Under the pieces are notes generated by a model. The model made no database searches. It had not been told where the DNA came from and worked only from the letters and a program-made list of their open reading frames with translations. The translations under genes were made by a program, and so were the position numbers. Of a stretch of 32,000 bases of DNA, positions 669 to 18,403 are shown piece after piece (the stretch's first letter is position 1; each line of letters opens with the position of its first letter). This DNA is from Promethearchaeum syntrophicum (GTDB lineage Archaea > Asgardarchaeota > Lokiarchaeia > Sigyniarchaeales > Promethearchaeaceae): assembly GCF_008000775.2 (NCBI RefSeq), contig NZ_CP042905.2, positions 3,120,001 through 3,152,000 of the forward strand, read 5' to 3'.

Positions 669-1985
669 ATGATGGGGGATTTAATATTGGCGGATAAAAT
701 CAGCGCTTTTACCCGTTTTTTAAAATTTCAAGTGTTAATTATTGGTTTTATAAAAATGGGAGAATTCGTATTTTTCTTTTTTGAACAAAATTATATCAAT
801 TTATATGTTGAACAGATTTTGGGGAAAAGTGAATATTATGTCTCTTGGTTAGTCTCCCTTAGTGCCGTAATGGGTATAATTTTTCAATTTGTTTGGGGTG
901 TTATCAGTGATAATACACGGTCAAAGTATGGTCGAAGGCGTCCATTTTTTATCTTTGGAGGATTCCTTGCTGGGATATCTATGATTATATATGCGTTTTC
1001 AAAAAGCTATTGGTTATGTTTAATTTTAGACGGAATTATTATTGCTATTGGCACCAATGCTTATCTCGCTGCAGAACATTCTCTTATCCCGGATATATTT
1101 GAGAAAAAACTACGAGGGAGAGCAAATGGTATTATTTTTGTAATGGGTAATATCGGAATGGTTATTGCTTTAGCCCTATTTCTTATTACTGAAGAAATTT
1201 TTGGGTATGAAGGACCTCAAGGAGGGACCATTCTTGAATCAACAGGTTTTATATTATTACTAACAGTTGGAGGTGCATTTATCATTATTGGAGGTATTCT
1301 TGGATTTTTATTCGTTCGGGAAAAACCTACAGATGAACTTCAACCGAGAAAGACATTTAAAGCCGAAATGAAAGAGACATTTAGAGTAAGTGAATTAAAA
1401 AACCATAAGGAATTTGGAAAGAACATTTTAGCAAATATGGTTTTCAGAATTGGGTATTCGACTATTATGCCGTTTCTTTTCAGTTATATTTTCAGTTTGG
1501 GAATGGATTTAGTTGAACTTTTAATTTCCATAATGGTTGTATCATTTCCATTAGTTTTTATATTTACATACGTAATTGGGGTATTAAGTGATAAATATGG
1601 AAGGAAGAAATTCTTGATTATTACACTTTTTATTATGGCTTTAGGATTGAGTTTAGTTCCTCTTATTGGCGGACCAAGTGATTACAGTTATGCTTTGATC
1701 CTCCTTTGTTTTCCATTTATTATGATTACCCTTTTGGGTTTTGATGCTCCTATGAATTCTTGGACTCAAGATTTATTACCAGAAAATAAACGAGGACAAT
1801 TTATTGGAATAATGAATATAACCATGAATGTCCCCCAAATAATCGGTTCCTTTATAGCTGGTTATGTGGCTATAGAATACGGGAAACAATGGATATTTCC
1901 TACAGCAGGTGCATTCTTAATACTTTCGATCCCCTTTTTCCTTTGGATCAAAGATACTCTTGGTCCGAAATCAGATCCCGAATAA
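669..1985 (+). CDS. MFS transporter of the glycoside-pentoside-hexuronide (GPH)/sucrose-transporter-like type, probably an oligosaccharide or glycoside:cation symporter
   Basis: 438-aa ORF with about 12 hydrophobic segments. After TM2 it carries GVISDNTRSKYGRRRPFFIFG, the D-x-x-R-x-x-x-G-R-R-R-P signature typical of GPH/SLC45-like carriers. A second-half echo is GVLSDKYGRKKFL. Confidence 0.85.
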   Translation: MMGDLILADKISAFTRFLKFQVLIIGFIKMGEFVFFFFEQNYINLYVEQILGKSEYYVSWLVSLSAVMGIIFQFVWGVISDNTRSKYGRRRPFFIFGGFLAGISMIIYAFSKSYWLCLILDGIIIAIGTNAYLAAEHSLIPDIFEKKLRGRANGIIFVMGNIGMVIALALFLITEEIFGYEGPQGGTILESTGFILLLTVGGAFIIIGGILGFLFVREKPTDELQPRKTFKAEMKETFRVSELKNHKEFGKNILANMVFRIGYSTIMPFLFSYIFSLGMDLVELLISIMVVSFPLVFIFTYVIGVLSDKYGRKKFLIITLFIMALGLSLVPLIGGPSDYSYALILLCFPFIMITLLGFDAPMNSWTQDLLPENKRGQFIGIMNITMNVPQIIGSFIAGYVAIEYGKQWIFPTAGAFLILSIPFFLWIKDTLGPKSDPE

Positions 1986-2010
1986 TGTAAAATGAGCATC
2001 CTGATGGGTC

Positions 2011-2028
2011 TTCTTTTTTTTTTATTTT
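2011..2028 (+). terminator. Oligo-T tract (T10 then T4) 26 nt after the transporter stop; candidate archaeal-type intrinsic terminator
   Basis: The sequence ttcttttttttttatttt lies directly downstream of the stop at 1985. Oligo-T is the established archaeal termination signal, but in an AT-rich genome this is weak evidence. Confidence 0.3.
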
Positions 2029-2070
2029 AATGGGAAGATTATTATTGGTGAAGGGGAATATAATTTAAAT

Positions 2071-4086
2071 ATGGAAGAAGAATTTTTCAAAACGACCTCT
2101 GTGACTGATTTTAAATTGAAAAACATAGGGAATCCTCCTAGAGGATACAATATTCAAAGAAATCAAGATGTTTATTCTAAATTTCCATTTAAACCAGACT
2201 ATTCAGATCGTAAATCAGATTTTATCTCTCATTGCCTTCAAAATCCAGGGACTGATGCTATCAAAGGTTACTACTATGAATTGGTGCGAATTTCAGAAAA
2301 TCAGGGACCAATCTGGCAGGAATTAATTGAAAGTGCTTTAAATTATATCGATTCAAGGTTAGATTGTTCTGATTTTGTTCTCTTAGGAATAATGCGTTTA
2401 TACTGCCAACTCAGTCAAAAACCATTAGTGACCCCGAAAATTCTCCAACATTCAAAAAAAACCATCCTAATGTTTAAATATTGGCCTGATGAACCCGGAA
2501 ATGATTCAATGTGTTATTGGACCGAAAATCATCATATTATGTTTGCCGTGAATGAATATTTAGCAGGACAATTATTCCCAGATGAAATTTTCAGTAATTC
2601 TAAAATGTCAGGTAGAGAAAAAGTCACGAAAGCGAGTAAACGGATATTAAAATGGTTGGAATTGCGATTTTATACTGGATTCAATGAATGGTTATCAAAT
2701 ATTTATTTTGATGAAGATTTAACTGCCCTTCTTAATCTGATTGATTTTTGTAATGACACTGAAATAGTGAGGAAAGCAAAAATTATTGTGGATTTATTAC
2801 TCTTTGATATGGCACTAAATTCCTTTTATGGACAATTTGTTTCAACCCATGGACGGTGTTATGCAGCTGAAAAGAAAAATGCTTTGATAGAATCAACGAC
2901 TGATACCATGAAACTGGTATTTGGAATGGGCGTATTTGCGAACAATGATAATATGAGTGCAGTTACCCTAGCTTTAAGTGAGAAATATACTCCACCAGAA
3001 GTTCTTATAAGTATCGCATCTGACGTAAACAGATCAGAAATGCAAAATTTACAACGTGTGGGTATCAAAATAAGAGAAGCTGCAAAATGGGGTATAAATT
3101 ACAAGGATGTTGATAACGGATTGATCCTTCTTTCTTTTGAATCTTATGTTCATCCAAAAACAATTAATGTAATGGTAAAAATGCTCGATCGGTTTAGGTG
3201 GTGGGATAATCAATTCTTTCAAGAATTTGGACCCTTTAAACAAGCGTTGAGGATTGGGAAATATTTTGGTCTTACCATTTGCTTAGCTCTTATTTTTATA
3301 AAAGATTTAACTAGAAATACTCGAGAAGAAAATAATATCTATACTTATCGAACTCCTGATTATATGCTCAGTTCTTCTCAAGATTATCGAAAGGGCTATG
3401 GAGGGGATCAACAACATATTTGGCAAGCCACTCTTGGTCCAGAAGCAGTATGTTTTACAACACACCCGGGAGGGTATGAAAATACAGCACCTGAGGGATA
3501 TTGGTTAGGATCTGGTTATTTACCTCGCGTAGGCCAAGTGAAAAATGTTTTAATTTCAATATATAAAATTCCAAGGATGGGAGGAATATTGCTACGAAAA
3601 AATCTGCCATTTACCCATGCTTGGATCCCTAAAAACAAATTCGATGAAGTGATAGAAAGAAATGAATGGGTTTTTGCTCGATATCAAGAAGGTTATTTGG
3701 CACTTTTTTCTCAACATAAATATTACTGGCATCCCCAAGGGGGAGATAAAGATATGGAAATTATTGCCAATGGACGCCACAATATTTGGATTATGGAAAT
3801 GGGTCGAAAAGAAGATTATGGATCTTTTTCAGCTTTTGTTGATTCAATTTCATCATCAAACCTCAAGTTCGGTCGTCAGTCTGTCAAATATGCATCCCCG
3901 AGTCAAGGAAATCTAGAATTTGGATGGAATGGACATTTAAAACAAAATGGGAAAAAACTAAATCTAAAGAATTATCCTCGTTATGCGAATCCTTACTGTA
4001 AAACATCTTTTGGAGCCGAAAATATACATATTAAGCATTTAGATAAGGAAATATTTTTAGATTTTAATAAGGCAGGTAGAACCTAG
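2071..4086 (+). CDS. Cytoplasmic paralogue (671 aa) of an unassigned enzyme-like family; tentatively an (alpha/alpha)-toroid polysaccharide or oligosaccharide lyase-like protein (heparinase II/III or alginate-lyase-like)
   Basis: Long uninterrupted ORF with no N-terminal hydrophobic signal. It shares collinear blocks with the 9262-11313 protein: KYW..EP..D.M..WTENH, GF.EW.SNIYF, VDL..FD, THGR, SEKY.PP, YTYRTP.Y.LS..QDY.KG..G.Q.HIWQA.L, PGG, THA..P, SPSQG. The lyase call rests only on size, the N-H motif within a helical N-terminal half, and the KDG-pathway neighbourhood. The coding call is secure; the functional call is low confidence. Confidence 0.6.
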   Translation: MEEEFFKTTSVTDFKLKNIGNPPRGYNIQRNQDVYSKFPFKPDYSDRKSDFISHCLQNPGTDAIKGYYYELVRISENQGPIWQELIESALNYIDSRLDCSDFVLLGIMRLYCQLSQKPLVTPKILQHSKKTILMFKYWPDEPGNDSMCYWTENHHIMFAVNEYLAGQLFPDEIFSNSKMSGREKVTKASKRILKWLELRFYTGFNEWLSNIYFDEDLTALLNLIDFCNDTEIVRKAKIIVDLLLFDMALNSFYGQFVSTHGRCYAAEKKNALIESTTDTMKLVFGMGVFANNDNMSAVTLALSEKYTPPEVLISIASDVNRSEMQNLQRVGIKIREAAKWGINYKDVDNGLILLSFESYVHPKTINVMVKMLDRFRWWDNQFFQEFGPFKQALRIGKYFGLTICLALIFIKDLTRNTREENNIYTYRTPDYMLSSSQDYRKGYGGDQQHIWQATLGPEAVCFTTHPGGYENTAPEGYWLGSGYLPRVGQVKNVLISIYKIPRMGGILLRKNLPFTHAWIPKNKFDEVIERNEWVFARYQEGYLALFSQHKYYWHPQGGDKDMEIIANGRHNIWIMEMGRKEDYGSFSAFVDSISSSNLKFGRQSVKYASPSQGNLEFGWNGHLKQNGKKLNLKNYPRYANPYCKTSFGAENIHIKHLDKEIFLDFNKAGRT

Positions 4087-4092
4087 ATAAAT

Positions 4093-6111
4093 TCAATACT
4101 TTTTATTAAATATTTTCCGATCTTGGTATTGAGCCCAAATTTTTTCAAACCATACATTTACTTTTGGGATTGGACGACATTTAACCCATTGTGTTTCGAG
4201 TTTCAATTCTCCATAAACATTCCTACTATTAAAAATTTCTAAAATTTTATCATCTAAATTGAAATTACGCGGTTTTATGGGATATTTTTTAAGTTTTGGA
4301 TGATAAATGGATGCATTCTGATCATCTCCTTTATTGATTATTAAAAAGGATCCTCTACTTCCACCTTCATGCATAATATAGGTTTGAATGCTCATTAAAT
4401 AGGTTATTTGGCATATTAAAGCATCTAAGGTTTTCAAAGCGCCCAAAAGCTCTCTCCCGGAATTTACATGAATTTTAGAAAAGAATCTGTTTAAATCGTT
4501 CCGTGATATTTTTAAAATGTTGTTAATTTCAATTAAATTTCGAGTATAAGCTCCAGATTTCATCATTCGACTTTGAATCTTGTCCAAGAGATATATTTGG
4601 TTCGATTCAGGAGATTGTTCATCATTTTGGAATAATTTTATTAAGAGCGATAATAAGTGAGATTTTGTATTTATTGCATGAACTGAGAATTCTTCTGCAG
4701 TTAAGAATTCCTTCCATTTTCCATATGCGATTTTTTCAGCAACCCTAATTCCTCCTACTTGCCCTGAATTTAATGCTGATCCTCCCGGTCGATGAACTCC
4801 GTGGGATCCATTTACTTCTCCAATTGCAAATAAATGAGGGACTGAGGTTTCCCACCATATATCTCCCGAAATTCCCCCATTACAATGTTGAGCACAAACA
4901 CCAATCTCCAAAGGTTCTGTGTATAAATCAATTCCATTATTCTTATAAAGATTGATGGCTTCTGGGTTCATGTTAGACAATCTATCAATTGGAATAGTCT
5001 GAATTGCACCACTATTTTCTAAATATTCTTTTGCTTCAACACTAAGTTTTTCCCAATCAAATCCTGAGGGGTTTTGCATGAAATTCATGTAAACCTTACG
5101 ATTGCGTTCAATTCTCTCAACATGAATAGCCATGTCAATTAATGAAGAGCCATAATCAGCTATTCGTTCAACATTAAAAGGCCACTGATATCCTTTAAGA
5201 AAAATAGCATTTATCAATTTTTCAGTTGTTGGAAAATATTCTTGTAAAAATTCTCTTTGTTCAGTATTTGGATCTAAAATATCATCCTCAGCCGCGATCG
5301 AAAAATAACGAGGAATTACTTGCTGGTAACTACCACTTACATTCCATCGAAATTTCAGTGATGCTAATCCAAATTGGGATTCAGTCAAGTTTTGAAGTTT
5401 TGCACCTGCAGAAATTGCTAAACTGGTTGATCCCCATTGAGAATGAGGATAGACGGAATATTTGTACATCCCAGAAGGACCCCCTGTCGCTAAAATAATA
5501 AAATCTGATTGAATAATATTTAGGCTTTTATTCACTATATCTTTTGAGAGATCATCACATGATTCAATTTTGTTTAAATTAAGATAAATAAGACCACATA
5601 CCTTTCCTTTCTGATCTTTTATTATTTCCACAACCAAAGATTTATCTAGAATTTGGATGTTTCTTCTGCGAACTTCATTTAAAAGTAATTTTCCCATCTG
5701 TTGTGACGTTAAAGGTCCTGCTGACGTCCCTCTTTGTAATGGATCGTTATCAGTTTTATACCCAACATATGTACCATATTGATCATGGGGAAAAGAGACT
5801 CCAAGATTTACCAAATTCATAAAAGCTTGAACCGAGCATGTTGCTTCAATTAAAGCAATATCTCCATGCATAGACCCTCCATCAAAGAGCGTTTGGGCCA
5901 TTTTTGATGGAGAATCACGAATTTCTCCTCCAAGAGATAGTTTATAATACGTTTGTTTATCCGATCCAGCTTCAAAGGATGTCCCCCCTCCCAATTTTTC
6001 AGTAATAATTAAAATTTGGTCCGAGGGAATATTTCTTTTTACTAATTCAACAGCACAATTAAGCCCTGCAGCACCGCTACCAATGATTATGGTATGAAAT
6101 TGCGAATTCAT
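4093..6111 (-). CDS. FAD-dependent oxidoreductase of the fumarate reductase/succinate dehydrogenase/L-aspartate oxidase flavoprotein superfamily (FAD_binding_2-like), 672 aa
   Basis: N-terminal dinucleotide fold IIIGSGAAGLNCAVEL. C-proximal block AIGEVNGSHGVHRPGGSALNSGQVGG matches the G-x-N-R-L-G-G-N-S-L type motif of this superfamily. SD GAGGTGGA (reverse complement of 6117-6124) lies 5 nt before the ATG at 6111. Confidence 0.8.
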   Translation of the reverse strand: MNSQFHTIIIGSGAAGLNCAVELVKRNIPSDQILIITEKLGGGTSFEAGSDKQTYYKLSLGGEIRDSPSKMAQTLFDGGSMHGDIALIEATCSVQAFMNLVNLGVSFPHDQYGTYVGYKTDNDPLQRGTSAGPLTSQQMGKLLLNEVRRRNIQILDKSLVVEIIKDQKGKVCGLIYLNLNKIESCDDLSKDIVNKSLNIIQSDFIILATGGPSGMYKYSVYPHSQWGSTSLAISAGAKLQNLTESQFGLASLKFRWNVSGSYQQVIPRYFSIAAEDDILDPNTEQREFLQEYFPTTEKLINAIFLKGYQWPFNVERIADYGSSLIDMAIHVERIERNRKVYMNFMQNPSGFDWEKLSVEAKEYLENSGAIQTIPIDRLSNMNPEAINLYKNNGIDLYTEPLEIGVCAQHCNGGISGDIWWETSVPHLFAIGEVNGSHGVHRPGGSALNSGQVGGIRVAEKIAYGKWKEFLTAEEFSVHAINTKSHLLSLLIKLFQNDEQSPESNQIYLLDKIQSRMMKSGAYTRNLIEINNILKISRNDLNRFFSKIHVNSGRELLGALKTLDALICQITYLMSIQTYIMHEGGSRGSFLIINKGDDQNASIYHPKLKKYPIKPRNFNLDDKILEIFNSRNVYGELKLETQWVKCRPIPKVNVWFEKIWAQYQDRKIFNKKY

Positions 6112-6136
6112 TTAATTCCACCTCAGAGGAAATCCC

Positions 6137-6913
6137 TTAAAGCCTACGTATATGGAATCCACCATCAAGATTTAAAACTTGTCCAGTAGCATAGGGAATC
6201 AATCCTTCTGCTAAAGTTACAGCGGCTTTTCCTATATCTTTTGGATCCCCCCAACGTTTTATTGGTAAAATTCCTTCCCTAATTAATTTATCATATTTAG
6301 ATTTAACTCCATTAGTCATTGGAGTTTTTATTATCCCTGGTTGTATTTCATATACGGGAAAATCATATTCTGCCAAGCGATCGGCATAGAGTTTCGTCAT
6401 CATGGATAATCCCGCTTTGGAAATACAATATTCACCACGAGAGGTCGAGCTTGTAAAAGCAGATATACTTGAAATAGTTATTATTGAAGGATGATAGTTT
6501 TCAATATTTCCTTTTAGACGCAGTTCAATCATAAAATTAACTAATTGTTGGGTTAAAAAATAAGGTCCTTGTAGATTAATTTTTATCACATATTCAAAAT
6601 CTTCTTCAGAAGCTTCTAAAATATCTTTCCTCTCAGGAGGTGCAACCCCCGCATTATTTACCAGTACATCGATCCTTCCTATATTTTTCTTAATTGTCTC
6701 TATTAGGTTCTCACGAGATTCGCTGGAAGAGATATCACATTGAATAAACATGCTGGATTTTTCGTAATTCTCAAAAATATTTTCTTTTGGCTCATGTCGA
6801 GCACAAATGATAACATAATAATTTTTGGAAAGAAATTCATGAGCGATTCCTAATCCAATTCCTTGCGTTCCACCTGTAACCAATACTACTTTTTGATCAA
6901 TTTCTTCGTCCAT
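6137..6913 (-). CDS. Short-chain dehydrogenase/reductase (classical SDR); KduD/FabG-like keto-sugar-acid reductase is plausible from context
   Basis: The 258-aa protein carries VTGGTQGIGLGIA (TGxxxGxG), NNAG and the catalytic YCISK (YxxxK). SD GGAGAT lies 7 nt upstream of the ATG at 6913. Confidence 0.9.
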   Translation of the reverse strand: MDEEIDQKVVLVTGGTQGIGLGIAHEFLSKNYYVIICARHEPKENIFENYEKSSMFIQCDISSSESRENLIETIKKNIGRIDVLVNNAGVAPPERKDILEASEEDFEYVIKINLQGPYFLTQQLVNFMIELRLKGNIENYHPSIITISSISAFTSSTSRGEYCISKAGLSMMTKLYADRLAEYDFPVYEIQPGIIKTPMTNGVKSKYDKLIREGILPIKRWGDPKDIGKAAVTLAEGLIPYATGQVLNLDGGFHIRRL

Positions 6914-6940
6914 TTTTAAGATCTCCTTTTCTTTTTCTTA

Positions 6941-8326
6941 TTAATTATTCTCCCTTTTCTTTCCTTTAAAATATGGTAGATAAGTTTCTGAATCTCGAAT
7001 AACACATCCGGTAACACTACTTTTACGCATTAATTCAGTACATTTAGAACAAGTAATACAACCTTTATTTGGATTCAATGCATTTTTCAGAAGAATTTGT
7101 TGTCCAAATTCAGGGTTTGCAAATGCCATCCTTCCATATCCAATTATATCCACATTTCCTTGAGATACTTCATAAGCTGCTATATGAGGAGAATATTCCC
7201 GTAACCATGAATATCCTGTCCCAATAATTTTTATTTCTGAAGGAACGGAAGATTTTATTTTTCGAGTTAGATTTATAAATCGATAAACTCCCTGTAAAGG
7301 ATGTTCGTTAGGAAGATTTGCACCTTGTACGGGTTGATCAAATGGACGAGATATACTTGAATCGAAATATGGATTTCCAAGGGTTAAATTGAATAAATCC
7401 ATCCCAATTTCGTGCAAGTCTTTAATTAATTTGATTGGTTCCTCCAAATTTGGAACTGGAGGATATCTATCACTTATTTGTTTTTCTACGCCCCACCCAT
7501 AGGGATAAGGAATTCCGTCATAAATATTCATCCGAGAACAAATAAGAAACTTTTCAGAAGAAAATTGGGATACTATCTCTTTTATTATAGATATTAACCA
7601 TTTTGTTCGCGTTGTATAAGAATCTCCTCCATATTTTGAGTTTACACGAGTAAATGCACTCAGAGATTCATTTAATAAATATCGGTGGCAAATCTTGATA
7701 TCAACTCCATCAAAACCTATCTCTTTAGCTAATTTGGTAGTCTCTATGAATTGTGATTTTATTTCTTCTAATTCACTATCTGATAGGATTTTTCCATCTG
7801 ACAAAGTTTGGTGATAAGCATTATCTAAAGGTTCATAGGAATACATTCTTTGTGGAAATTTTATTCCAGGACGAGAATACCGTCCGGAATGGTTGAGTTG
7901 AAGAATTTTAATTGATTTTTTAAAAATTTCATTCTTCCTACTCAATTCTTCCTCGGATTTTTCCGCTTCGTGTATAATTGTTTGAAAAGCATTTTTATTT
8001 TCTTCGTTTAACATAAGTTGGTTAGGATTTGAACGACCTTGAGGAGTTATGGCAGTGGATTCATACCAAATAATTCCGACACCTGATAAACCAAATCTTT
8101 GATATCTTCTTTTAGTTAAACGAGAAGGAGAACCATTAGTTTTAGCATCACAACCTTCCATTGGATGAATACAAAGTCGGTTAGAAATATTTAAATCACG
8201 GATTTTCAGAGGTGCTTTAAGCGATTCCAAATTCGTGGATAAATTTATATCAAGTTTTAATTCCTCTATCTTTTTTTTAAGTTGATCCTTCGATTTAAAT
8301 TTAAAAATTTCATGCTTTTGGTTCAA
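6941..8326 (-). CDS. Old-yellow-enzyme / NADH:flavin oxidoreductase family TIM-barrel flavoenzyme (2-enoate or 2,4-dienoyl-CoA reductase-like N-terminal module) with a C-terminal Cys cluster
   Basis: The 461-aa protein carries IHPMEGCDA, IGFDGVDIKICHRYLLNESLS (compare the GFDGVEIH.AHGYL..QFLS consensus) and GYGRMAFANP. The C-terminal CITCSKCTELMRKSSVTGC resembles the Fe-S ligand patch of the enoate-reductase branch. TTG start follows an AAGGTAAT SD-like element. Confidence 0.8.
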   Translation of the reverse strand: MNQKHEIFKFKSKDQLKKKIEELKLDINLSTNLESLKAPLKIRDLNISNRLCIHPMEGCDAKTNGSPSRLTKRRYQRFGLSGVGIIWYESTAITPQGRSNPNQLMLNEENKNAFQTIIHEAEKSEEELSRKNEIFKKSIKILQLNHSGRYSRPGIKFPQRMYSYEPLDNAYHQTLSDGKILSDSELEEIKSQFIETTKLAKEIGFDGVDIKICHRYLLNESLSAFTRVNSKYGGDSYTTRTKWLISIIKEIVSQFSSEKFLICSRMNIYDGIPYPYGWGVEKQISDRYPPVPNLEEPIKLIKDLHEIGMDLFNLTLGNPYFDSSISRPFDQPVQGANLPNEHPLQGVYRFINLTRKIKSSVPSEIKIIGTGYSWLREYSPHIAAYEVSQGNVDIIGYGRMAFANPEFGQQILLKNALNPNKGCITCSKCTELMRKSSVTGCVIRDSETYLPYFKGKKRENN

Positions 8327-8384
8327 TTTGATTACCTTGGTTGGATTTGTTAACTTTTTTTTAGTTATTAATAATAAAAAATCT

Positions 8385-9245
8385 TTAGACGCTACCTAGA
8401 AGAAACATGAGAAACGCGATGAACACACTTATTCTTAGTAATATCATAATTGCTGGATTATATTTCTCATCCAATTTCAAAGAAAAGGTTAAAAAAGCAG
8501 CGATCCCATCACAAAATATAACAATTAGCATCGGAATTAGATAAAGCGTCGAATTATAGATGTTAAGGAAAATAGGCAGAGTAATACATATAATTGTAAC
8601 AATTTGTGCATAGAAAGCATTTCTTTGAGTTTTAATTGGACCATAAATCTTGATGAGGGGATTGATTTGATCCGCTTTTTCATTTTTTCGCACTTTGAAA
8701 CTACGAATTACCTCTTTCGAAAATTGGAGAGAAAATCCAGCAATAAAGAAAAGAATTATGTAGAAAGGTATATTCCAACCGTTCAGAGTTGCTCCATAAA
8801 AAAATCCAAAAGAGAACGAGAAGCTACTGATGATAATAACAAGGGTACTTCTATTTTCCATTTTTTTTCCGAAAAAGATTGATAGATTCCAAATAATTCC
8901 AATTAAAATCATGGAAATAATATTGAAAACACCAATATCATAGATTATTGAGTGAAGAAGTGCGAGAACAAAGGCACTGGAATAAAAAATACCACAAAAG
9001 ATTAATATTAATAGAGGATTTTTTAATTCATTTGTGGTCTCTTCATCCATTGATTGCAACCAAAGTGCGAGTAACATTCCAGATATTGCTAATAAAAAGT
9101 AAGTTGGCACACCTATATAGATATTAATACTGACTCTTCCCATTCCTATCTCCATTCGGGTATTTAATATACCAAAAAGTGTCAATATACTAGCAGCCAT
9201 CCAATTAAATGGTTTTAAAGTGCGGAAGATTTCTTTTTTGTTCAT
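8385..9245 (-). CDS. Polytopic membrane protein (about 8-9 TM), possibly a divergent UbiA-fold protein whose Asp-rich motifs are not conserved
   Basis: I prefer ATG at 9245 (MNKKEIFRTLKPFNW...), which follows GGAGAG, over the track start at 9290, which overlaps the upstream gene. The topology and the loop ...KEVIRSFKVRKNEKADQINPLIKIYGPIKT... loosely recall UbiA prenyltransferases. The expected NDxxDxxxD motif is replaced by QSMDEETTNE. Confidence 0.55.
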   Translation of the reverse strand: MNKKEIFRTLKPFNWMAASILTLFGILNTRMEIGMGRVSINIYIGVPTYFLLAISGMLLALWLQSMDEETTNELKNPLLILIFCGIFYSSAFVLALLHSIIYDIGVFNIISMILIGIIWNLSIFFGKKMENRSTLVIIISSFSFSFGFFYGATLNGWNIPFYIILFFIAGFSLQFSKEVIRSFKVRKNEKADQINPLIKIYGPIKTQRNAFYAQIVTIICITLPIFLNIYNSTLYLIPMLIVIFCDGIAAFLTFSLKLDEKYNPAIMILLRISVFIAFLMFLLGSV

Positions 9246-9261
9246 AATTTTCACTCTCCAA

Positions 9262-11313
9262 TTAAGAAATTGAATAAGTACGAGTCGCATTTTCGAAATC
9301 CAATTCTAATGTTTGAGATTCGAATTCAATGAGTGTAGTATTTGTTCCAAATATTTGATAACAAAAATCGTTATCAAATCGGGGAAATGGGCCTAAATCT
9401 ACCTCTGAACCATTTGAAGTCATTGGTCCATCCCATGCGACAGTGATAATTCCTTGGGAAGGAGAATCATAAACTATATCAAATCCTACTGCCAATTGGT
9501 TCACTTTTACTTCCGCATCTAAAATTTCTTCAATGAATGCATCAAAAGTTGCATAATCCTCAACATTCGCTAATTCTACGATGTAAGCATTTTTTTTTCC
9601 GAAAGATTTGAGTTCAATATCAGATTCCCAATGTGTTTTCTCATGAGAATAGAGGGCAATGTAACTATCGTTTTTAGAACCAAAGGTCCATTTTCCATGC
9701 TGTTCAACCGAATCAAAAGCCCATTGAGGAAAATAAGCATGAGTATATGGTTTAAACTCAAGATAAAGAAATACTATTTCACCTATCAACGAAGTTGCTA
9801 ATCGATCATATTGGAATATACCAACATTTTCATGTAATGTTGCTCTAGGTTTCCACCCGCCTGTGAATTCTTGAGGACTTACACCTCCAGGAGAATTTGT
9901 ATAGACAATGGCAGTTTCATCTAAACTTGCTTGCCAGATATGTTCTTGTAATCCAGCCATTCCTTTATGATAATCTTGAGCACCTGAAAGCTGATAATAT
10001 GGAGTCCGATAGGTATAGGTACTTACAGATTCTAAACACGTTCCTTGGGTTACAATCTTTAATTTTTCACAAAATTCACTGAGTGTGGTTCCATGAATCG
10101 TCCCCCCAATATTTAGGAGATCTAAAAACATAGCATCATTAAAAATTAACTTTGTTTTAATGTCATATTCTTCCATTAATCTTACAGATGCATCAATTAT
10201 TGGAGATGAGGCAGGAGCTGACATTGGCCACCAAAACATAAGATCATCTTCGGATGTATAACCCAAGCCGTAAGTAGGACCATCAGCTAAATTTAAACTA
10301 CTCCTTTCTTTATGTTCATTGTTGGTAGCTGCAAATTCAGCGATATCTTCTAAAATAGGAGGTGGAACGTATTTTTCGCTAGCTGCAATTGAAATTGCAC
10401 CGCGGTTATTTCCATCATTGATATTATGTTTGCCTATTCCAAGTAATACCCATGCAGATTCAGAGGGAGATTCTCGACTTGCCGGAGAATCTATTGAAGT
10501 TCCCACTTGTCGACTATCCTCTGTACGTCCATGGGTGGTTGCGTAGATGCTGTGGTAAAAATTATTTGCAAAATCAAAAGCAATGAGATCTACTAACATC
10601 ATAGCTTTAGTGGAAATGGATTCATCTTTGGAAAATTCAACTAAATTCATTAAAGCGATTAAATCTAATGTAAAATAAATATTCGAATGCCATTCTGAAA
10701 ATCCAAATTGAGCACGCCACCCTATCCAACGATTTATCAAAGGAATTGCATGATTAACATGCTCAATACCAGTCATATTTGAATTTGTAAAAGTCTCGTT
10801 TGGATATAATTGTCCAGCCAACAATTCGGCAGTGTGAAAAAGAATCATATGATTTTCTGTCCAAAATATCATATTATCTGAGTTAGGTTCAGTGAACCAA
10901 TATTTAAAATCAAGAACAGTTTGCTTTAAATCCATTTTCAATTCAGAACTTAGAATGTGTGTTACATTATCAAAGTAGAGCATTCGTAAATATGCGTTTA
11001 CATCAAAATCTGAAGTATCTTCAAAGTTATTTACATCCTCAAGAGTATTTCGTATAATAGTTTCATTTATGGGTAATCCTAGATAAATCCGTGCTACTTG
11101 GGCATGAAACCCATTATTTTCATGGGTACCATTAAGATAAAATTTTTGGCGTTCAGTGAAATTAAGATGTGGATATTGTTGTAAATCTTTAAAATAATTT
11201 GTATTTTGAGATTTCGGAGCATTTATGCTAAATTCAGTTAAAGAAAATATAGGAATGAGCATAACTGCTAAAATCACACTAATTTTCGCAAATTTTTCTG
11301 TTAATTTTTTCAT
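9262..11313 (-). CDS. Secreted or membrane-anchored paralogue (683 aa) of the 2071-4086 family; tentatively an extracellular polysaccharide lyase-like enzyme
   Basis: N-terminal MKKLTEKFAKISVILAVMLIPIFSLTEFS is a signal peptide or anchor. It shares the same collinear conserved blocks as the 671-aa paralogue. It has about ten N-x-S/T sequons (NFT, NGT, NET, NVT, NET, NMT, NDS, NTT, NAT...) against about four in the cytoplasmic copy. SD AGGGTAAT precedes the ATG at 11313. Confidence 0.6.
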   Translation of the reverse strand: MKKLTEKFAKISVILAVMLIPIFSLTEFSINAPKSQNTNYFKDLQQYPHLNFTERQKFYLNGTHENNGFHAQVARIYLGLPINETIIRNTLEDVNNFEDTSDFDVNAYLRMLYFDNVTHILSSELKMDLKQTVLDFKYWFTEPNSDNMIFWTENHMILFHTAELLAGQLYPNETFTNSNMTGIEHVNHAIPLINRWIGWRAQFGFSEWHSNIYFTLDLIALMNLVEFSKDESISTKAMMLVDLIAFDFANNFYHSIYATTHGRTEDSRQVGTSIDSPASRESPSESAWVLLGIGKHNINDGNNRGAISIAASEKYVPPPILEDIAEFAATNNEHKERSSLNLADGPTYGLGYTSEDDLMFWWPMSAPASSPIIDASVRLMEEYDIKTKLIFNDAMFLDLLNIGGTIHGTTLSEFCEKLKIVTQGTCLESVSTYTYRTPYYQLSGAQDYHKGMAGLQEHIWQASLDETAIVYTNSPGGVSPQEFTGGWKPRATLHENVGIFQYDRLATSLIGEIVFLYLEFKPYTHAYFPQWAFDSVEQHGKWTFGSKNDSYIALYSHEKTHWESDIELKSFGKKNAYIVELANVEDYATFDAFIEEILDAEVKVNQLAVGFDIVYDSPSQGIITVAWDGPMTSNGSEVDLGPFPRFDNDFCYQIFGTNTTLIEFESQTLELDFENATRTYSIS

Positions 11314-11374
11314 ATATCTAAATTACCCTTTAAATTCAAAAATATTTACATATTTAGTTGATAATTATGATATC
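11314..11374. promoter_or_regulatory. Divergent promoter region between the minus-strand redox/lyase-like operon and the plus-strand eda-kdgK operon
   Basis: This is a 61-nt A/T-rich spacer. tttacata at 11345-11352 resembles the archaeal TATA consensus TTTAWATA. It sits about 25-30 nt before the eda ATG at 11375, which has no SD and may be leaderless. The evidence is weak because the whole window is AT-rich. Confidence 0.3.
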
Positions 11375-12013
11375 ATGAATTATTTTTCAGAAACCCTAAA
11401 AAAATATTTTTTAATCCCAGTTGTTTCAATTGAGAGTTTAGATAAAATTGCTCCACTGACACAAACATTGCAAGCGGCCGGTATAAAGTTTCTGGAAATA
11501 ACCTATCGTAATAAAAATGCGAGTGAAGCCCTTAAAATTCTTCAAAATAATAATTTTAATATGATAATTGGAGCAGGAACGATTCGAACTCTTGCCCAAG
11601 CAGAGGAAGCAATAAAATATGGAGCTAAATTTTTGGTGAGTCCTGGATTTAATAAAGAAATTATACATTTTGCTGCAAAACGGAATATTCCATTTGTTCC
11701 AGGTGTCGACTCTACCCTAAGTATTGAATTAGCTAATTCAGAAGGAATTAGTTTGTTAAAATTTTTTCCAGCAGAGATATCTGGAGGCATAAAATGGTTG
11801 AAATCTATTAAAGGACCATATCATGAAATAAAATTTATTCCCACAGGAGGGATTACTCTTGAAAATTTGGATCTCTACGTTAAACTAACGAATGTTGCAG
11901 GGATCGGAGGATCATTTCTTGCCCCTAAAAGGCTCATCTTGGAAGATAATTGGGATGAAATAGCTTTAATCTGCACGAAAGCAATAAAAATAGTTGAATT
12001 AGCTAGAGGATAA
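11375..12013 (+). CDS. eda: 2-keto-3-deoxy-6-phosphogluconate (KDPG) / KHG aldolase, Eda type (class I)
   Basis: LEITYRN, GAGTIRT, FLVSPGF, PGVDSTLSIE, and LLKFFPAEISGGIKWLKSIKGPYHEIKFIPTGGI...GIGGSFLAP align almost residue-for-residue with E. coli Eda (..[36 protein letters not shown]), including the Schiff-base Lys context. I use ATG 11375 rather than the track start 11225, which overlaps the divergent gene. Confidence 0.9.
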   Translation: MNYFSETLKKYFLIPVVSIESLDKIAPLTQTLQAAGIKFLEITYRNKNASEALKILQNNNFNMIIGAGTIRTLAQAEEAIKYGAKFLVSPGFNKEIIHFAAKRNIPFVPGVDSTLSIELANSEGISLLKFFPAEISGGIKWLKSIKGPYHEIKFIPTGGITLENLDLYVKLTNVAGIGGSFLAPKRLILEDNWDEIALICTKAIKIVELARG

Positions 12014-12055
12014 ATATTAATTACTTAAAAAATGAAGAGAAATGTGACTTAAAAT

Positions 12056-13093
12056 ATGAGAAATTATGTAGTAACCTTAGGAGAAATAATGCTTAGGTTA
12101 AAATCACCTAATTTTGAACGTTTGCTTCAAAATCCGGTATTAAAAGCAAGTTTTGGAGGAAGCGAATCTAATGTAGCTATTTCACTCGCAAATTTCGGTA
12201 TACCGTCTCGATTTGTTAGCGCACTCCCTAACAATCAGCTGGGTTTGGCAGTAATTAGATTCTTGAAATCAATGAATGTGGATACCTCGTATATCCAAAT
12301 GCAAGGGACTCGCTTAGGAACATATTATTTAGAGACTGGATCAGGTCCACGCCCTTCAAAGGTGATCTATGATCGTTCAAATTCAAGTATTTCACAAGCT
12401 AAAACAGAAGATTTTGATTGGGATTTAATTTTCAAAGATGTAAAATGGTTTCATATATCTGGTATTACACCAGCTTTATCTCAAAAATCTGCTGATATAT
12501 CCCTTAGTGCGATTAAGTTTGCGAGGAATTTGGGTATAAATATCTCGTGCGATTTAAATTATCGTAAAAATTTATGGAATTACGGAAAACCAGCGAAAGA
12601 AGTAATGGGGAAAATAGTACCACTTATTGATATTATTATTGCCAATGAAGAAGATCTTCAAAAATCCTTAGGAATTGAAGAGGATCAAATAATTGGAACT
12701 GAGAATTTAGATCCCCAAAAATATGAAAAAATGTTGAAAAAAGTTTCGGAACAATTTCCAAATATAAAAATAATAGCAACAACGCTTCGGGAAAGTTTTT
12801 CAGCAGATCACAATGATTGGAGTGCATTATGTTATGAAAAAGCAACAAATACAACTTTTTTCTCAAGAAAATATGCACTAAAAAATATCGTCGATAGGGT
12901 TGGAGCAGGGGATGCCTTCGCAGGTGGGTTTATTTACGGAATCTATTCTAAATTGGATATTCAAGGTGCTTTAGAATTTGCGGTAGCCGCTTCTACTTTA
13001 AAACATACGATTCCAGGAGATATTAACCGTGTATCTATTAAAGAAGTAAAGAATTTTTTAGAAGGGGAATCATCTGGACGTGTTCAGCGTTGA
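12056..13093 (+). CDS. kdgK: 2-keto-3-deoxygluconate kinase (PfkB/ribokinase family)
   Basis: The 345-aa protein has an N-terminal GEIMLRL...FGGSESNVA. It carries the PfkB signature DRVGAGDAFAGGFIYG near the C-terminus. It lies immediately downstream of eda. Confidence 0.85.
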   Translation: MRNYVVTLGEIMLRLKSPNFERLLQNPVLKASFGGSESNVAISLANFGIPSRFVSALPNNQLGLAVIRFLKSMNVDTSYIQMQGTRLGTYYLETGSGPRPSKVIYDRSNSSISQAKTEDFDWDLIFKDVKWFHISGITPALSQKSADISLSAIKFARNLGINISCDLNYRKNLWNYGKPAKEVMGKIVPLIDIIIANEEDLQKSLGIEEDQIIGTENLDPQKYEKMLKKVSEQFPNIKIIATTLRESFSADHNDWSALCYEKATNTTFFSRKYALKNIVDRVGAGDAFAGGFIYGIYSKLDIQGALEFAVAASTLKHTIPGDINRVSIKEVKNFLEGESSGRVQR

Positions 13094-13127
13094 ATCAAGA
13101 ATGTAAAAGAAAAGAGAGGGTAAAATT

Positions 13128-14267
13128 TTGGGTAGAAAGAAATTAAAATATGGAATGGTAGGTTATGGATTAATGGGATGGGGCCATACCCTTGAATTAA
13201 AATTTTCCCCAAAATTGAGAGGGAGAACTAATTTTATTGCTTGTTTTGATCCCAGTCCAAAACAACAAGCAAAATTGAAAAAAAGAAGAAATGTTAAAGT
13301 TGCAGAATCATTCGAGGATTTATTGGATACCCCTGGAATTGAAGCTTTAATCATAAGTAGCCCTCCTCAGTTTCATGCAGAGCAAGTTATTGCAGGGTTA
13401 GAAGCGGGATTACATATTTACTCAGAGGTTCCTATGGCGATAAAGGAAGATGATATCAAGCGAATTATCGATGCAGAAGAGAAATCGAAAGGGATATATC
13501 AATATGGAGAAAATTATGTTTTTCTTTCTGAAGTATTGTATGCAGCCCATCTTTCTTCAAGCGGAAAAATAGGTCCTACAGTATATGCTGAAAGTGAATA
13601 TCTCCATGATGTTACCTATCGATGGCGACAGGATCATAAGGGAGGACCCGAAACACCTCGTATTGAGTCATGGTATTCCCTTATAGAACCGATGGAATAT
13701 GCGCACACAATTGGGCCAGCACAAGTGGCATTAGGAAGTCTTGAATCGCCAATGCCATTTATCGAAGTTAAAAGTTACAGCAATTCTATTGGTGGATTTA
13801 ATGGAGATCCTATTTGTCGCCCCTCAAGTTCTTTTCAAGTTGCTTTATTTAAAACAGAAACAGATGCGATAGCAAAATGTGCAAATGCTTATATCTTTGC
13901 TCGTGAACCAACGCGAATGACATTACAGCTTACTGGGAGAACCGGAACCTATGAATGTTATCGTATAGGGAGAGCAGGGAGGTTATTTCTTGCTGATGAT
14001 CATATTATTAAATTTCGGCACAGAAAAGGACGTGCATACAGGATTGGACCAATGGCTTTATCTCGAGTTGTACCTTGGAGGTTAGGTACCTATTTTGGAG
14101 CTCAACCCCGAATTTTTGATGATTGGTTATCTGCTATTGAAACAAACACACAACCCTCTCTCCATGCAAAAGTTGCCGCAAATATGTGTATGGCTGGAAT
14201 CTATGCTGCAAAAAGTGCCCAACAAAATAAAACCATAGAGATTCCAGTATTTTCTTCAAAAATGTAG
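13128..14267 (+). CDS. Gfo/Idh/MocA-family NAD(P)-dependent oxidoreductase
   Basis: N-terminal Rossmann strand LKYGMVGYGLMGWGH. It also has ISSPPQFHAEQ (compare the P...H consensus) and EVPMA (the EKP-like motif). TTG start follows a GAGAGGGTAAA SD-like element. Confidence 0.8.
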   Translation: MGRKKLKYGMVGYGLMGWGHTLELKFSPKLRGRTNFIACFDPSPKQQAKLKKRRNVKVAESFEDLLDTPGIEALIISSPPQFHAEQVIAGLEAGLHIYSEVPMAIKEDDIKRIIDAEEKSKGIYQYGENYVFLSEVLYAAHLSSSGKIGPTVYAESEYLHDVTYRWRQDHKGGPETPRIESWYSLIEPMEYAHTIGPAQVALGSLESPMPFIEVKSYSNSIGGFNGDPICRPSSSFQVALFKTETDAIAKCANAYIFAREPTRMTLQLTGRTGTYECYRIGRAGRLFLADDHIIKFRHRKGRAYRIGPMALSRVVPWRLGTYFGAQPRIFDDWLSAIETNTQPSLHAKVAANMCMAGIYAAKSAQQNKTIEIPVFSSKM

Positions 14268-14338: not shown

Positions 14339-15541
14339 ATGAAAAAACCGTTTTTTCCTTTAGCGGTTCTGTTATTTTTAATTTCGATCTCAACTATCGC
14401 TGCGTTAACCGCTAATGATTCTCCTATTCTTGTAGAGGGGGCTGATTGTGTGGGATATCACGGTAACACATTCTTAAAAACTTCTTCACAGTTGAATTAT
14501 GGAGGAGCAGCTCATGTAGATGAAGAATTAGAATTTTCAATTGATTTTTACATCTTAGCGAATGGGATGATATTTAATGCAACTGTCGAATTATATAATT
14601 TTCCTGGAGATCTAACTATTCAAGAGGGGCAATCCCAACAGAATAAGTCCGAAATGAATTTCGATAGTTTCACACCCACGTGGAAAATTTCTGGAAATAT
14701 TGAGGGAAATTTCACTTTTAGTATCAAATCTACAGTCACCGTTAAATACATACCTTACCATTCGAATTATATAGCCACTTATGAATATCTCCACACCGGG
14801 TCATTCGCTGTATCAGAAAATCCTAACGATCCCCCATATTTATTAGATAATTCACAAGAAGAAGAAGGAATTAAGCCTCCATTTGATTGGAAAATTGTCC
14901 TTGGTCAGATTTTAGGGTTTTTTTCAATAATTTTAATATATTTTTGCATTCAATTGGGTATACCTGAAAGAAAGGCATGGATCCGAAAAAAAATGGGTTG
15001 GTCTGCCAAGCATTTAAGAGAAACTCATTGCGATTTAGGTTATTTGGCGATGGCAACCATTATTCTCCATAATATCATTTTATCTCTATCCTCATTATGG
15101 GGGTTCTATTTTAAATGGTTTCAATTTTATCCTACATTTTACGTTTTCAGAGAGGGATGGAATGGTATATTCGTGGGATTGGATTTGGCAGTATTTGGAT
15201 CACTTATCTTTATAATTGCTACAATAACGGGAACATTTTTCAAAAAGATAGCGAGAAAATTCGGATTCCGAACTGCCATTTTTACTCAACAGATTTCTTA
15301 CATTGCTTTAATCATATCAGTAATTCATGCTATCTTAAATGGTTCATGGACAAGGGATTACCCAATTCTCTTGATCATACAAATAATTATGGTAGCAGAA
15401 GTCCTTATTTCCCGTTTAATTGCGTATGCTCATGCTTATGATTTGAAATTAAGTAAAATCAAACCTGCGTCTGATCTTGAAAAAGCTTCTGATGAAATTG
15501 CAATCGAAATTTCACAAGATGAGTTTGATAGGAGTCAATAA
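14339..15541 (+). CDS. Membrane protein with a signal peptide, a ~170-aa extracytoplasmic domain and a C-terminal multi-helix domain resembling the ferric-reductase/MsrQ (YedZ)-type heme-b transmembrane domain
   Basis: Signal peptide MKKPFFPLAVLLFLISISTIAALTA. The extracellular part carries sequons (NAT, NKS, NFT). The helix ...KHLRETHCDLGYLAMATIILHNI has two His separated by 13 residues, the H-x13-H spacing of ferric-reductase-domain heme ligands. A further helix carries a His (LIISVIHAILNG). The fold assignment is tentative. Confidence 0.6.
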   Translation: MKKPFFPLAVLLFLISISTIAALTANDSPILVEGADCVGYHGNTFLKTSSQLNYGGAAHVDEELEFSIDFYILANGMIFNATVELYNFPGDLTIQEGQSQQNKSEMNFDSFTPTWKISGNIEGNFTFSIKSTVTVKYIPYHSNYIATYEYLHTGSFAVSENPNDPPYLLDNSQEEEGIKPPFDWKIVLGQILGFFSIILIYFCIQLGIPERKAWIRKKMGWSAKHLRETHCDLGYLAMATIILHNIILSLSSLWGFYFKWFQFYPTFYVFREGWNGIFVGLDLAVFGSLIFIIATITGTFFKKIARKFGFRTAIFTQQISYIALIISVIHAILNGSWTRDYPILLIIQIIMVAEVLISRLIAYAHAYDLKLSKIKPASDLEKASDEIAIEISQDEFDRSQ

Positions 15542-15545
15542 ATGT

Positions 15546-16013
15546 ATGTGGTTACTCATTCTTCATGTTTTCATTAATGTTCTAGGATTAGTTTTTCTCA
15601 TGGCAGGTTCTTTTCAAATTTTGATTAGTTCTAGCAAAAATTCATCAACCATCCAATCGGAGGAATTAGATAATTCTTTCATAGAAAATAACAATGGAAA
15701 ATCAAAAGAAGTTCGAAAGAGTAAAAATAAATTAATTGAAATAGGTTGGTATTTGTATACTTTTGGAGTTATTTTGGGTGCATTTCAAGCTAAAATAACA
15801 GTTGGATATTATTGGACTTGGGATCTTAAGGAAATTTTTAGTCTACTATCCATTCTTGGATATTTTAGCTATATAATAATAGAAATGAAATGGAATAAAC
15901 GAGTTAAACAATTTCTAATTTTAATTAGTTTGATACTGACTATTATCACTGTGATTATTCCCGCTATCGCTTATTCTTACCACAATCCATTTACTTTAAT
16001 TGGATTTAGCTGA
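15546..16013 (+). CDS. Minimal (155 aa, about 4 TM) cytochrome-c-assembly/heme-handling protein of the CcsA/ResC type (WWD domain)
   Basis: GAFQAKITVGYYWTWDLKEIFSLLS matches the core of the CcsA tryptophan-rich motif (..WG.YW.WDPKE.W..). There is a His in TM1 (LILHVF) and a His after the last TM (AYSYHNPF). I prefer ATG 15546, which starts 4 nt after the upstream stop codon ends and has GGAG 12 nt upstream, over the overlapping TTG at 15477. Confidence 0.65.
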   Translation: MWLLILHVFINVLGLVFLMAGSFQILISSSKNSSTIQSEELDNSFIENNNGKSKEVRKSKNKLIEIGWYLYTFGVILGAFQAKITVGYYWTWDLKEIFSLLSILGYFSYIIIEMKWNKRVKQFLILISLILTIITVIIPAIAYSYHNPFTLIGFS

Positions 16014-18391: not shown

Positions 18392-18403
18392 GGTGGAAAA
18401 AAA

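Follow-up and report, generated by a model that had tools for sequence, protein, structure and literature searches.

A candidate catabolic locus for uronate-containing glycans, with a probable new lyase-like protein family, in the Asgard archaeon Promethearchaeum syntrophicum

We analysed a 32,000-nucleotide stretch of the genome of Promethearchaeum syntrophicum (contig NZ_CP042905.2, positions 3,120,001 to 3,152,000; the window in this text), in which a gene island at positions 669–14,267 combines sugar-acid enzymes with two proteins of about 680 residues. The family of these two paralogues is called X below, and its two members XA and XB. As a system, the island is of a familiar type, but it includes an uncharacterised depolymerase family and a redox module that is unexplained, and its host lineage is unexpected. 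It is for the most part shared with anaerobic bacteria. In the reading that we prefer, and to which we give an even chance, it serves the breakdown of an acidic glycan or oligosaccharide that contains uronate, through a route whose biochemical steps are all inferred. What the analysis itself shows is the gene content, paralogy, localisation signals, modelled fold architecture, conserved neighbourhoods, domain fusions and a phylogenetic nesting in bacteria. The exported XB would cut the substrate extracellularly, and the fragments would be imported by the MFS transporter. The cytoplasmic XA would act exolytically by β-elimination to give 4,5-unsaturated uronate, which would open to 4-deoxy-5-hexosulose uronate. 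One or more of the oxidoreductases (a Gfo/Idh/MocA protein, an SDR, and a FAD flavoprotein plus an OYE-like protein; Gfo, SDR, FAD protein and OYE below) would convert it to 2-keto-3-deoxygluconate (KDG). KdgK would phosphorylate KDG, and Eda would split the phosphorylated product into pyruvate and glyceraldehyde-3-phosphate. Acidic sugar chains are thus a probable food source of this Asgard archaeon.

A listing of the open reading frames of the window contained all ten genes that an earlier note on this DNA had assigned to the island, and the coordinates, strand blocks and family scans agreed with its gene list and its three transcription units (plus strand, 669–4086; minus strand, 4093–11313; plus strand, 11225/11375–14267; Table 1). 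An eleventh gene within the island, which encodes a membrane protein (8385–9290, minus strand), had been omitted. The Pfam search that the note had proposed assigned the redox proteins, Eda, KdgK and the MFS transporter, and left XA and XB without a match. The extra redox enzymes that it had named (FrdA-like FAD protein, OYE-like protein and Gfo/Idh/MocA protein) were recovered as PF00890, PF00724 and PF01408. Its archaeal host was confirmed as well, and is a Lokiarchaeon, since the window was nearest to a contig of a Promethearchaeum metagenome-assembled genome (MAG; 84.6% nucleotide identity over 7.9 kb), whose gene order MFS-XA-FAD-SDR-OYE is that of the window, and to Candidatus Lokiarchaeum ossiferum (77% nucleotide identity).

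XA and XB are true paralogues, as had been proposed, with 32% identity over the full length (E=1e-114). Neither of them matched any family in Pfam or NCBIfam or any PDB sequence. NCBI labels members of the family as hypothetical, and two members carry the UniProt automatic name 'Heparin-sulfate lyase N-terminal domain-containing protein'. Our literature search found no characterisation of the X family, of Asgard uronate or lyase metabolism, or of ThuA/Gfo proteins together with lyases. The family is large. An exhaustive profile search of clusters made at 50% identity found at least 3,788 with E<=1e-3 and 1,213 with E<=1e-30; a pattern-limited scan found X in at least 244 GTDB species, and tblastn placed it on 201 plasmids, chiefly of Rhizobium. 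XA is most similar to proteins of Promethearchaeum sp. (90% amino acid identity), Ca. L. ossiferum (78%) and a Hermodarchaeota MAG (70%). Residues E152, N153, H154, W195, E206, Y212, G261-R262, Y306, Q447, H516 and D525 are invariant or nearly so across distant members, and the conserved motifs of XA are WTENH154, Y212, HGR262, Y306 and H516. Long forms of 821–840 residues, with about 300 extra residues at the N-terminus, were seen on a Rhizobium plasmid (8065–10587 of locus L169) and a Catenovulum plasmid (7957–10422 of locus L171). These forms are without the segment that matches XA residues ~320–400, which marks this segment as a dispensable insertion in the helical domain. X occurs in haloarchaea too: the Haladaptatus plasmid NZ_CP119783.1 encodes a member with 32% identity to XA. 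After it come a gene for a TIM-barrel sugar-phosphate isomerase/epimerase and several Gfo/Idh/MocA genes, and a heparinase II/III family protein of 1,305 residues is encoded 8 kb away from it.

XA was modelled with AlphaFold2 from a 38-sequence alignment. The model (pLDDT 88.3, pTM 0.92) has a helical domain (residues 44–413) and a β-sandwich (421–664), so that an α/α toroid at the N-terminus precedes an antiparallel β-sandwich at the C-terminus. When the whole model was compared with the PDB by Foldseek, the best 15 matches (E from 5e-6 to 3.5e-3) were all polysaccharide lyases (PL) of the toroid plus β-sandwich type, from families PL8, PL15, PL17 and PL35, and the 11 matches at E<=1e-3 were lyases without exception. 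Examples are the PL8 entry 1n7q (E=5e-6, probability 1.0), the PL15 entry 3a0o (3.7e-5), the PL35 entry 8khw (1e-4) and the PL17 entry 7bjt (7e-4). The PL8 matches are hyaluronate and chondroitin ABC lyases, the PL15 match is Atu3025, and the PL35 matches are GAGases. The lyase assignment of X stands at the level of this modelled architecture and of gene linkage, not of demonstrable homology. Taken in that sense, X is probably a lyase-like family that is new, within a locus of a familiar type.

The gene linkage came from neighbourhoods of X, whose members were clustered in 80 genome loci and the window. Single polypeptides (P0127, P0153, P0136, P0154, P0199) join X to a PF07470 domain, and both domain orders occur. 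In MFS-'GH88'-X, an arrangement rarer than the bacterial operon described below, the stop codon of the PF07470 gene overlaps the X start; this was seen in Vallitalea, in a spirochaete and on a metagenome contig. Rhizobium plasmids have the order X-GH88-GH28-ABC, and Catenovulum has X-GH88-MFS. These partner hydrolases matched GH105 structures in the PDB (YteR, 3qwt, and the ulvan unsaturated 3S-rhamnoglycuronyl hydrolase 4ce7), and we rejected their assignment to GH88 proper. GH105 and GH88 enzymes are known to act solely on 4,5-unsaturated uronate ends that are made by lyases. In the contexts that we read, X was the only unassigned large enzyme beside the GH105-like genes; no recognised PL gene was seen beside X in these contexts, most neighbours in the 80-locus survey being unannotated. 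Because GH105-type partners need lyase-made ends, their coupling to X is the best argument for X as a lyase, and it suggests a bond of the Rha-(1->4)-uronate kind. The GH105 and GH28 partners point to a rhamnogalacturonan-, ulvan- or gum-like substrate rather than alginate. In other contexts X is also near GH2, GH3, GH1, GH39 and sulfatases, which fit acidic, partly sulfated glycans, and near GPH or ABC importers. The GH105-like partner in Vallitalea (8935–10008 of locus L002) had a sole NCBIfam match, to NF051900 'beta-galactosidase BglB' (101 bits versus a cut-off of 420), and the activity of this subfamily may not be that of a classical unsaturated-uronyl hydrolase. The neighbourhoods of two distant X members were uninformative.

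X is also linked to KDG catabolism. The bacterial consensus is one co-directional operon, OYE-LacI-SDR-FAD-ThuA-Gfo-MFS_2-X-KdgK-(Eda), which we found in Spirochaetota/Leptospirales, Thermodesulfobacteriota and others. Our counts cover the bacterial loci with enough flanking DNA, which for FAD, SDR and OYE means at least 8.5 kb upstream of X. Gfo accompanied X in 32/49 loci, MFS_2 in 27/49 (and a second MFS_2 type in 5 more) and ThuA (PF06283) in 25/49; the figures for SDR, OYE and FAD were 17, 15 and 14 of 38, and those for KdgK and Eda 9 and 6 of 53. Eda and KdgK are therefore kept with X, FAD, SDR and OYE in bacterial operons, and the co-conservation that the earlier note had wished to see surveyed does exist outside the island. 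The Gfo and MFS proteins of the window were also considered as the Gfo and MFS_2 of these operons. This was rejected: the window Gfo has 21% identity to the operon Gfo, over the Rossmann half only, and the proteins fall in separate clusters. The window Gfo is instead kept with Eda-KdgK in Ca. L. ossiferum (72% identity), where MFS, Gfo, KdgK, Eda and XA lie together with no FAD, SDR or OYE nearby.

The lower end of the route is assigned by family models. Eda scored 195 bits on PF01081 and 218 bits on TIGR01182 (cut-off 156), which upholds its assignment to the bacterial Eda type. Its start is most likely 11375, judging from the start of the Pfam match and the orthologue length of 210–216 residues. 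KdgK, proposed earlier to be a KDG kinase, is a PF00294 protein with its best similarity to KDG-kinase models (NF041332, 232 bits; kinase part of NF041633, 444 bits; both under the whole-protein cut-offs), and its relatives are named 2-dehydro-3-deoxygluconokinase in their source records. The two genes are adjacent, with 42 bp between them. The transporter gene adjoins XA also in the Promethearchaeum MAG and in Ca. L. ossiferum. It had been called a GPH-type symporter, and its MFS_2 score does exceed the Pfam cut-off, but the protein is of the MFS_1 type and reached only 54 bits on the GPH model TIGR00792 (cut-off 231), so that the GPH call is weak.

KdgK belongs to a broad Asgard clade (Promethearchaeota, Hodarchaeota and Sigynarchaeota, 57–85% identity; bacteria ~56%), and a recent transfer of this gene was rejected for that reason. 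Related contexts were met in other Asgard genomes. On a Sigynarchaeota contig (locus L173, features at 3324–5624 and 8337–10050), Eda-KdgK is ~2.7 kb, with two genes between, from a 766-residue protein with a weak Hepar_II_III_C match; a 705-residue protein without Pfam match and outside the X family is near, and the contig also carries GH2 and MFS_2 genes. KDG catabolism and lyase-like proteins are thus paired independently in this lineage. In a Lokiarchaeota MAG, KdgK-SDR-FAD occurs with no X, and another Asgard contig (L175) has a Gfo/Idh/MocA gene beside Eda-KdgK. KDG catabolism thus recurs among Asgard archaea as a trait onto which various depolymerase candidates have been bolted.

The proposed route needs one X protein on each side of the membrane. 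XB and all of its orthologues have an N-terminal hydrophobic signal, whereas XA-clade proteins have none, which bears out the earlier claim of one exported and one cytoplasmic copy. Archaeal XB proteins begin with a basic region, which is K-rich in the window XB, followed by ~16 hydrophobic residues; their bacterial orthologues (54–58% identity) have a lipobox or TAT motif and adjoin XA orthologues, with XA-XB pairs side by side in Bacteriovoracaceae and Thermodesulfobacteriota. From these N-termini, XB is predicted to be exported or membrane-anchored and XA to be cytoplasmic. The exported XB keeps all invariant residues of the family, which argues for an X chemistry that stands alone, without a cytoplasmic cofactor partner. 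The membrane protein gene (8385–9290) overlaps the XB stop by 29 nt and is probably co-translated with XB. A 33%-identical orthologue directly adjoins XB in Ca. L. ossiferum (20396–21247 of locus L007). The protein had no Pfam match apart from a weak UbiA-like signal (E=0.0025); a role as anchor, as exporter or as channel for a product is conceivable.

The redox module between XA and XB consists of the FAD protein, the SDR and the OYE-like protein. The FAD protein matched L-aspartate oxidase and flavocytochrome c3 in the PDB (E ~1e-10) and has no partner subunit of its own. Its orthologues (38–46% identity) occur both in the X operons of bacteria and in 80 metagenome loci that we picked by the FAD protein. 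Among these 80 loci, SDR adjoins FAD in 59, and OYE is present in 36, KdgK in 12, Eda in 6 and X in 2; xylose-isomerase-like TIM barrels, Gfo proteins, IclR, the tagaturonate epimerase UxaE and GH3 also recur as neighbours. As judged from gene linkage, FAD-SDR-OYE appears to be an independent, widespread sugar-acid module that ends in KDG and is tied to KdgK/Eda mostly without X. The SDR scored 298 bits on NF009386, above the cut-off, but 128–144 bits on KduD models (cut-offs 339–369). Its earlier assignment as KduD or DEH reductase is thus not demonstrable, and its constant partner is the FAD protein in this separate module. The OYE-like protein has a C-terminal CxxCxxC-x11-C motif (Cys423, 426, 429 and 441), conserved across 21 orthologues, and these proteins are without the FAD/NAD(P)H domain of FadH-type enzymes. 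The motif is like the [4Fe-4S] site of FadH/2-enoate reductases and suggests that electrons pass to or from a partner protein, which may be the adjacent FrdA-like one. A few FAD loci have no short OYE; in these, SDR-FAD is immediately preceded by the gene of a full-length OYE+Fer4_20+Pyr_redox_2 protein.

Several observations weigh against the reading of the island as a uronate-glycan locus. At E<=1, none of 95 X members (38 close and 57 distant) matched any Pfam model, lyase models included (Lyase_8 and Hepar_II_III among them), and the X family profile found nothing among PDB sequences. The Foldseek TM-scores were only 0.17–0.33, with a root-mean-square deviation of ~20 Å. When the N-domain was modelled alone (pLDDT 85), it had no significant PDB match (best E=0.2), and its weak matches were generic α/α toroids, including GH9, GH76, complement TED domains, heparinase III, Alg17c and Atu3025. 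In hhalign, X compared with a 38-member alignment of one divergent subfamily of heparinase II/III (PF07940) gave a probability of 0.9% (E=0.059), and X compared with the single heparinase II/III protein of the Haladaptatus plasmid was not significant; a short helix and an 'HG' stretch that aligned in both runs were regarded as noise. N153, H154 and Y212 form a sequence pattern that may correspond to the Asn-His…(~55 residues)…Tyr catalytic set of PL15, PL17 and PL21. Together with R262, Y306 and H516 they are candidates for the Tyr/His base and acid and for the Asn, Arg or His by which such lyases neutralise the carboxylate in the toroid cleft. GH88/GH105 were absent from the island genes and ten other window open reading frames scanned against Pfam, and KduI and ThuA from the scanned window genes. 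The commonest partners of X in bacteria, ThuA and Gfo, are left unexplained by the proposed route, and the scarcity of X among the FAD loci means that the island may be two juxtaposed modules. The claims of the earlier note consequently stand in part. X is an uncharacterised family with a predicted lyase-type two-domain architecture, but without a sequence or profile match to lyases; its best fold matches are lyases when the whole protein is compared, whereas the N-domain alone has no significant match. The general sugar-acid utilisation scheme remains the most likely reading, but its candidate lyase is without demonstrable homology, its likely substrate class is set by GH105/GH28 partners rather than alginate, and its SDR belongs to a separate module.

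The alternative that survives best, though we hold it to be unlikely, is that X is a glycan enzyme of another class (a hydrolase, hydratase or epimerase) on a toroid plus β-sandwich like that of GH127/GH146 or GH95, which works beside GH105/GH28 and performs no β-elimination. It would suit the generic toroid matches of the isolated N-domain, several of which are glycoside hydrolases (GH9, GH76, GH154; TM ~0.3), and the appearance of GH146, GH127, GH92 and GH95 lower in the whole-protein list. The three invariant acidic residues E152, E206 and D525 would suit a hydrolase, and no sequence links X to any PL family. Yet the significant whole-protein matches and the next four are all lyases, whereas the glycoside hydrolase entries have E>=0.02 and low probability; the domain order, toroid N-terminal and sandwich C-terminal, is that of lyases; and the GH105 partners need an unsaturated end for which the contexts read offered no recognised PL.

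It is still less probable that the island joins two unrelated modules. FAD-SDR-OYE with KdgK-Eda would then turn a free keto- or unsaturated sugar acid into KDG, beside X by chance or loose selection, and the products of X would go elsewhere. The counts in the 80 FAD loci are what this would predict, as are the Lokiarchaeota MAG with KdgK-SDR-FAD but no X, the Ca. L. ossiferum island in which X accompanies Eda-KdgK-Gfo but no FAD, SDR or OYE, and neighbours of the FAD protein such as UxaE, xylose-isomerase-like TIM barrels, Gfo and IclR. Against it, whenever FAD, OYE or SDR accompanied X in the 38 bacterial loci, they had the same order and strand as X, and several of these operons run on into KdgK-Eda. 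The same join is present in two Promethearchaeum genomes, and both parts converge on KDG, as a lyase product would require.

Least probable, and in our view very unlikely, is an oxidative route in which a ThuA/ThuB-like pair makes a cytoplasmic 3-keto-glycoside that X cleaves by elimination, with the archaeal Gfo in the ThuB role: ThuA and Gfo/Idh/MocA are the most frequent bacterial neighbours of X, in the fixed order ThuA-Gfo-MFS2-X, are nearly mutually exclusive with GH105 as partners of X, and as ThuAB form 3-keto-disaccharides (PMC8121099), but an exported XB is out of reach of a NAD-linked partner in the cytoplasm, ThuA is missing from the window and from Ca. L. ossiferum, whose Gfo proteins are not orthologous to that of the bacterial operons, and the fusions and coupling of X are to GH105-type unsaturated-uronyl hydrolases, which indicates uronate chemistry.

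The preferred reading, a uronate-glycan locus, can be set beside known systems. Alginate loci (Oal, DEH reductase, KdgK, Eda and a transporter) resemble the island in plan, since it likewise ends in KdgK and Eda and has an oxidoreductase and a transporter. Their exolytic PL15/PL17 lyases (Atu3025, Alg17c) are, like X, proteins of ~700 residues with an N-terminal toroid and a C-terminal β-sandwich; they are among the significant Foldseek matches of XA (3a0o, 3afl, 7bjt), and XA is cytoplasmic likewise. However, these lyases have no detectable sequence homology to X, with TM-scores of only 0.2–0.27. Alginate systems also do not use GH105, unlike the relatives of X, and the island has no recognisable DEH reductase orthologue but has extra FAD and OYE flavoproteins.

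Rhamnogalacturonan and ulvan systems (PL11/PL26 or PL24/25/28/40 with GH105, GH28/GH2/GH3/GH39, sulfatases, KduI/KduD and KdgK/Eda) share with the relatives of X the GH105-like coupling and the glycoside hydrolase, sulfatase and importer neighbours. Their lyases PL11 (a β-propeller), PL24/25/28 and PL4 differ from X in fold, and they have their own GH105, GH28, sulfatase and KduI, none of which is in the window island. Among glycosaminoglycan lyases (PL8, PL35, PL21/PL12), PL8 and PL35 entries gave the best whole-protein E-values to XA (1n7q and 8khw). Two X members carry the automatic UniProt name with 'Heparin-sulfate lyase', yet the profile comparison with heparinase II/III was negative and the N-domain was not significantly similar to any of these lyases.

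For the flavoproteins, the closest parallel is to the NADH:acrylate, cinnamate and fumarate reductases of Vibrio and Klebsiella. As described in two preprints (bioRxiv 10.1101/2022.01.20.477176, 10.1101/2023.03.04.531086), these combine OYE-like and FAD_binding_2 parts without a membrane or Fe-S subunit, as in the island, and are NADH-dependent reductases of α,β-unsaturated carboxylates. Those enzymes contain FMN_bind, whereas Pfam found no FMN_bind match in the island proteins, the FAD_binding_2 and Oxidored_FMN domains are on separate polypeptides, and the OYE has a [4Fe-4S]-type Cys motif. A 4,5-unsaturated uronate is an α,β-unsaturated carboxylate too, and we treat the analogy as a lead only.

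A neighbour-joining tree of 80 X proteins places the XA clade of archaea within bacterial diversity, as sister to SAR324; the archaeal XB pair is sister to bacterial XB, and two more Asgard MAG copies nest elsewhere. This topology indicates several transfers of X from bacteria to Asgard archaea; contamination of MAGs is possible, and the L. ossiferum genome is closed. The nesting of X, together with FAD, SDR and OYE being orthologues of bacterial-operon genes, points to a bacterial origin of these genes. The acquisition by transfer that the earlier note had suggested therefore fits XA and XB, but not obviously KdgK with its Asgard-wide clade. A recent insertion marked by a GC or skew anomaly was rejected; the GC content of the island (~0.31–0.38) is not set apart from the rest of the window, where no such anomaly was seen.

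A bolder proposal goes further on three points at once, and as a whole we consider it improbable. X would be a new polysaccharide-lyase family with thousands of members; the FrdA-like protein, the Fe-S OYE and the SDR would form an undescribed anaerobe route from unsaturated uronate, or its keto form, to KDG without KduI/KduD; and Lokiarchaeia would have received both X lineages and FAD/SDR/OYE from bacteria and would, besides living as amino-acid syntrophs, act as primary degraders of acidic glycans from algae or plants.

Table 1. Genes of the island, with positions in the window and the matches on which their assignment is based.
Feature	Position	Strand	Matches and remarks
MFS transporter	669–1985	+	MFS_1 163 bits, MFS_2 58 bits; candidate sugar or sugar-acid importer
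XA, 671 residues, candidate oligosaccharide lyase	2071–4086	+	no family match; no N-terminal signal
FrdA/NadB-like FAD flavoprotein	4093–6111	-	FAD_binding_2 PF00890
SDR oxidoreductase, candidate keto-deoxy sugar-acid reductase	6137–6913	-	adh_short_C2 165 bits
OYE-like FMN protein	6941–8326	-	Oxidored_FMN PF00724
Polytopic membrane protein	8385–9290	-	several hydrophobic stretches in a hydropathy scan (overlapping segments counted separately); no Pfam match
XB, 683 residues, candidate extracellular depolymerase	9262–11313	-	XA paralogue; N-terminal export signal
Eda-type class I KDPG/KHG aldolase	11375–12013 (reading frame opens 11225)	+	PF01081, TIGR01182
KDG/KDGal kinase (KdgK), PfkB family	12056–13093	+	PF00294 122 bits
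Gfo/Idh/MocA NAD(P) oxidoreductase, Asgard-specific subtype, candidate reductase feeding KDG	13128–14267	+	PF01408 68 bits

The genes that follow the island are of other kinds. At 14339–16013 (plus strand) lies the gene of a 400-residue protein with a signal-like N-terminus, a His-rich membrane domain and no Pfam match, overlapped by that of a 178-residue cytochrome-c-assembly-like membrane protein. In the Promethearchaeum MAG this gene pair (1219–2966 of locus L006) is directly upstream of MFS-XA, which shows that the island is rearranged relative to that genome. Three genes at 16052–21337 (plus strand) encode a NuoE-like [2Fe-2S] protein, a NuoF-like FMN/Fe-S protein with extra ferredoxin domains, and a 977-residue fusion of Fer2_4, a GltD/DPD-type Fer4_20+Pyr_redox_2 part and an Nqo3-like ferredoxin domain, with a vestigial molybdopterin match. 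Together they resemble a soluble oxidoreductase that is linked to NAD(P)H and possibly bifurcating, with no obvious catalytic hydrogenase or formate dehydrogenase domain. At 27051–30111 (plus strand), a calcineurin-like (PPP-type) phosphoesterase directly follows a Ser/Thr protein kinase of eukaryotic type, whose N-terminus is Cys-rich and zinc-ribbon-like and which has a long linker; this kinase-phosphatase pair is typical of Asgard signalling genes.

The known cultured Lokiarchaeia grow on amino acids and peptides, and two papers on such cultures do not discuss sugar-acid use. An exported depolymerase candidate, an importer and a route to pyruvate and glyceraldehyde-3-phosphate would give a concrete class of growth substrates for Asgard cultivation. 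Because it is so tightly coupled to GH105, the X family is a strong candidate for a missing lyase step in the breakdown of rhamnose-uronate glycans, in anoxic sediments, in soils and on rhizobial plasmids. The FAD-SDR-OYE-KdgK-Eda module offers a second, independent lead to undescribed sugar-acid biochemistry.

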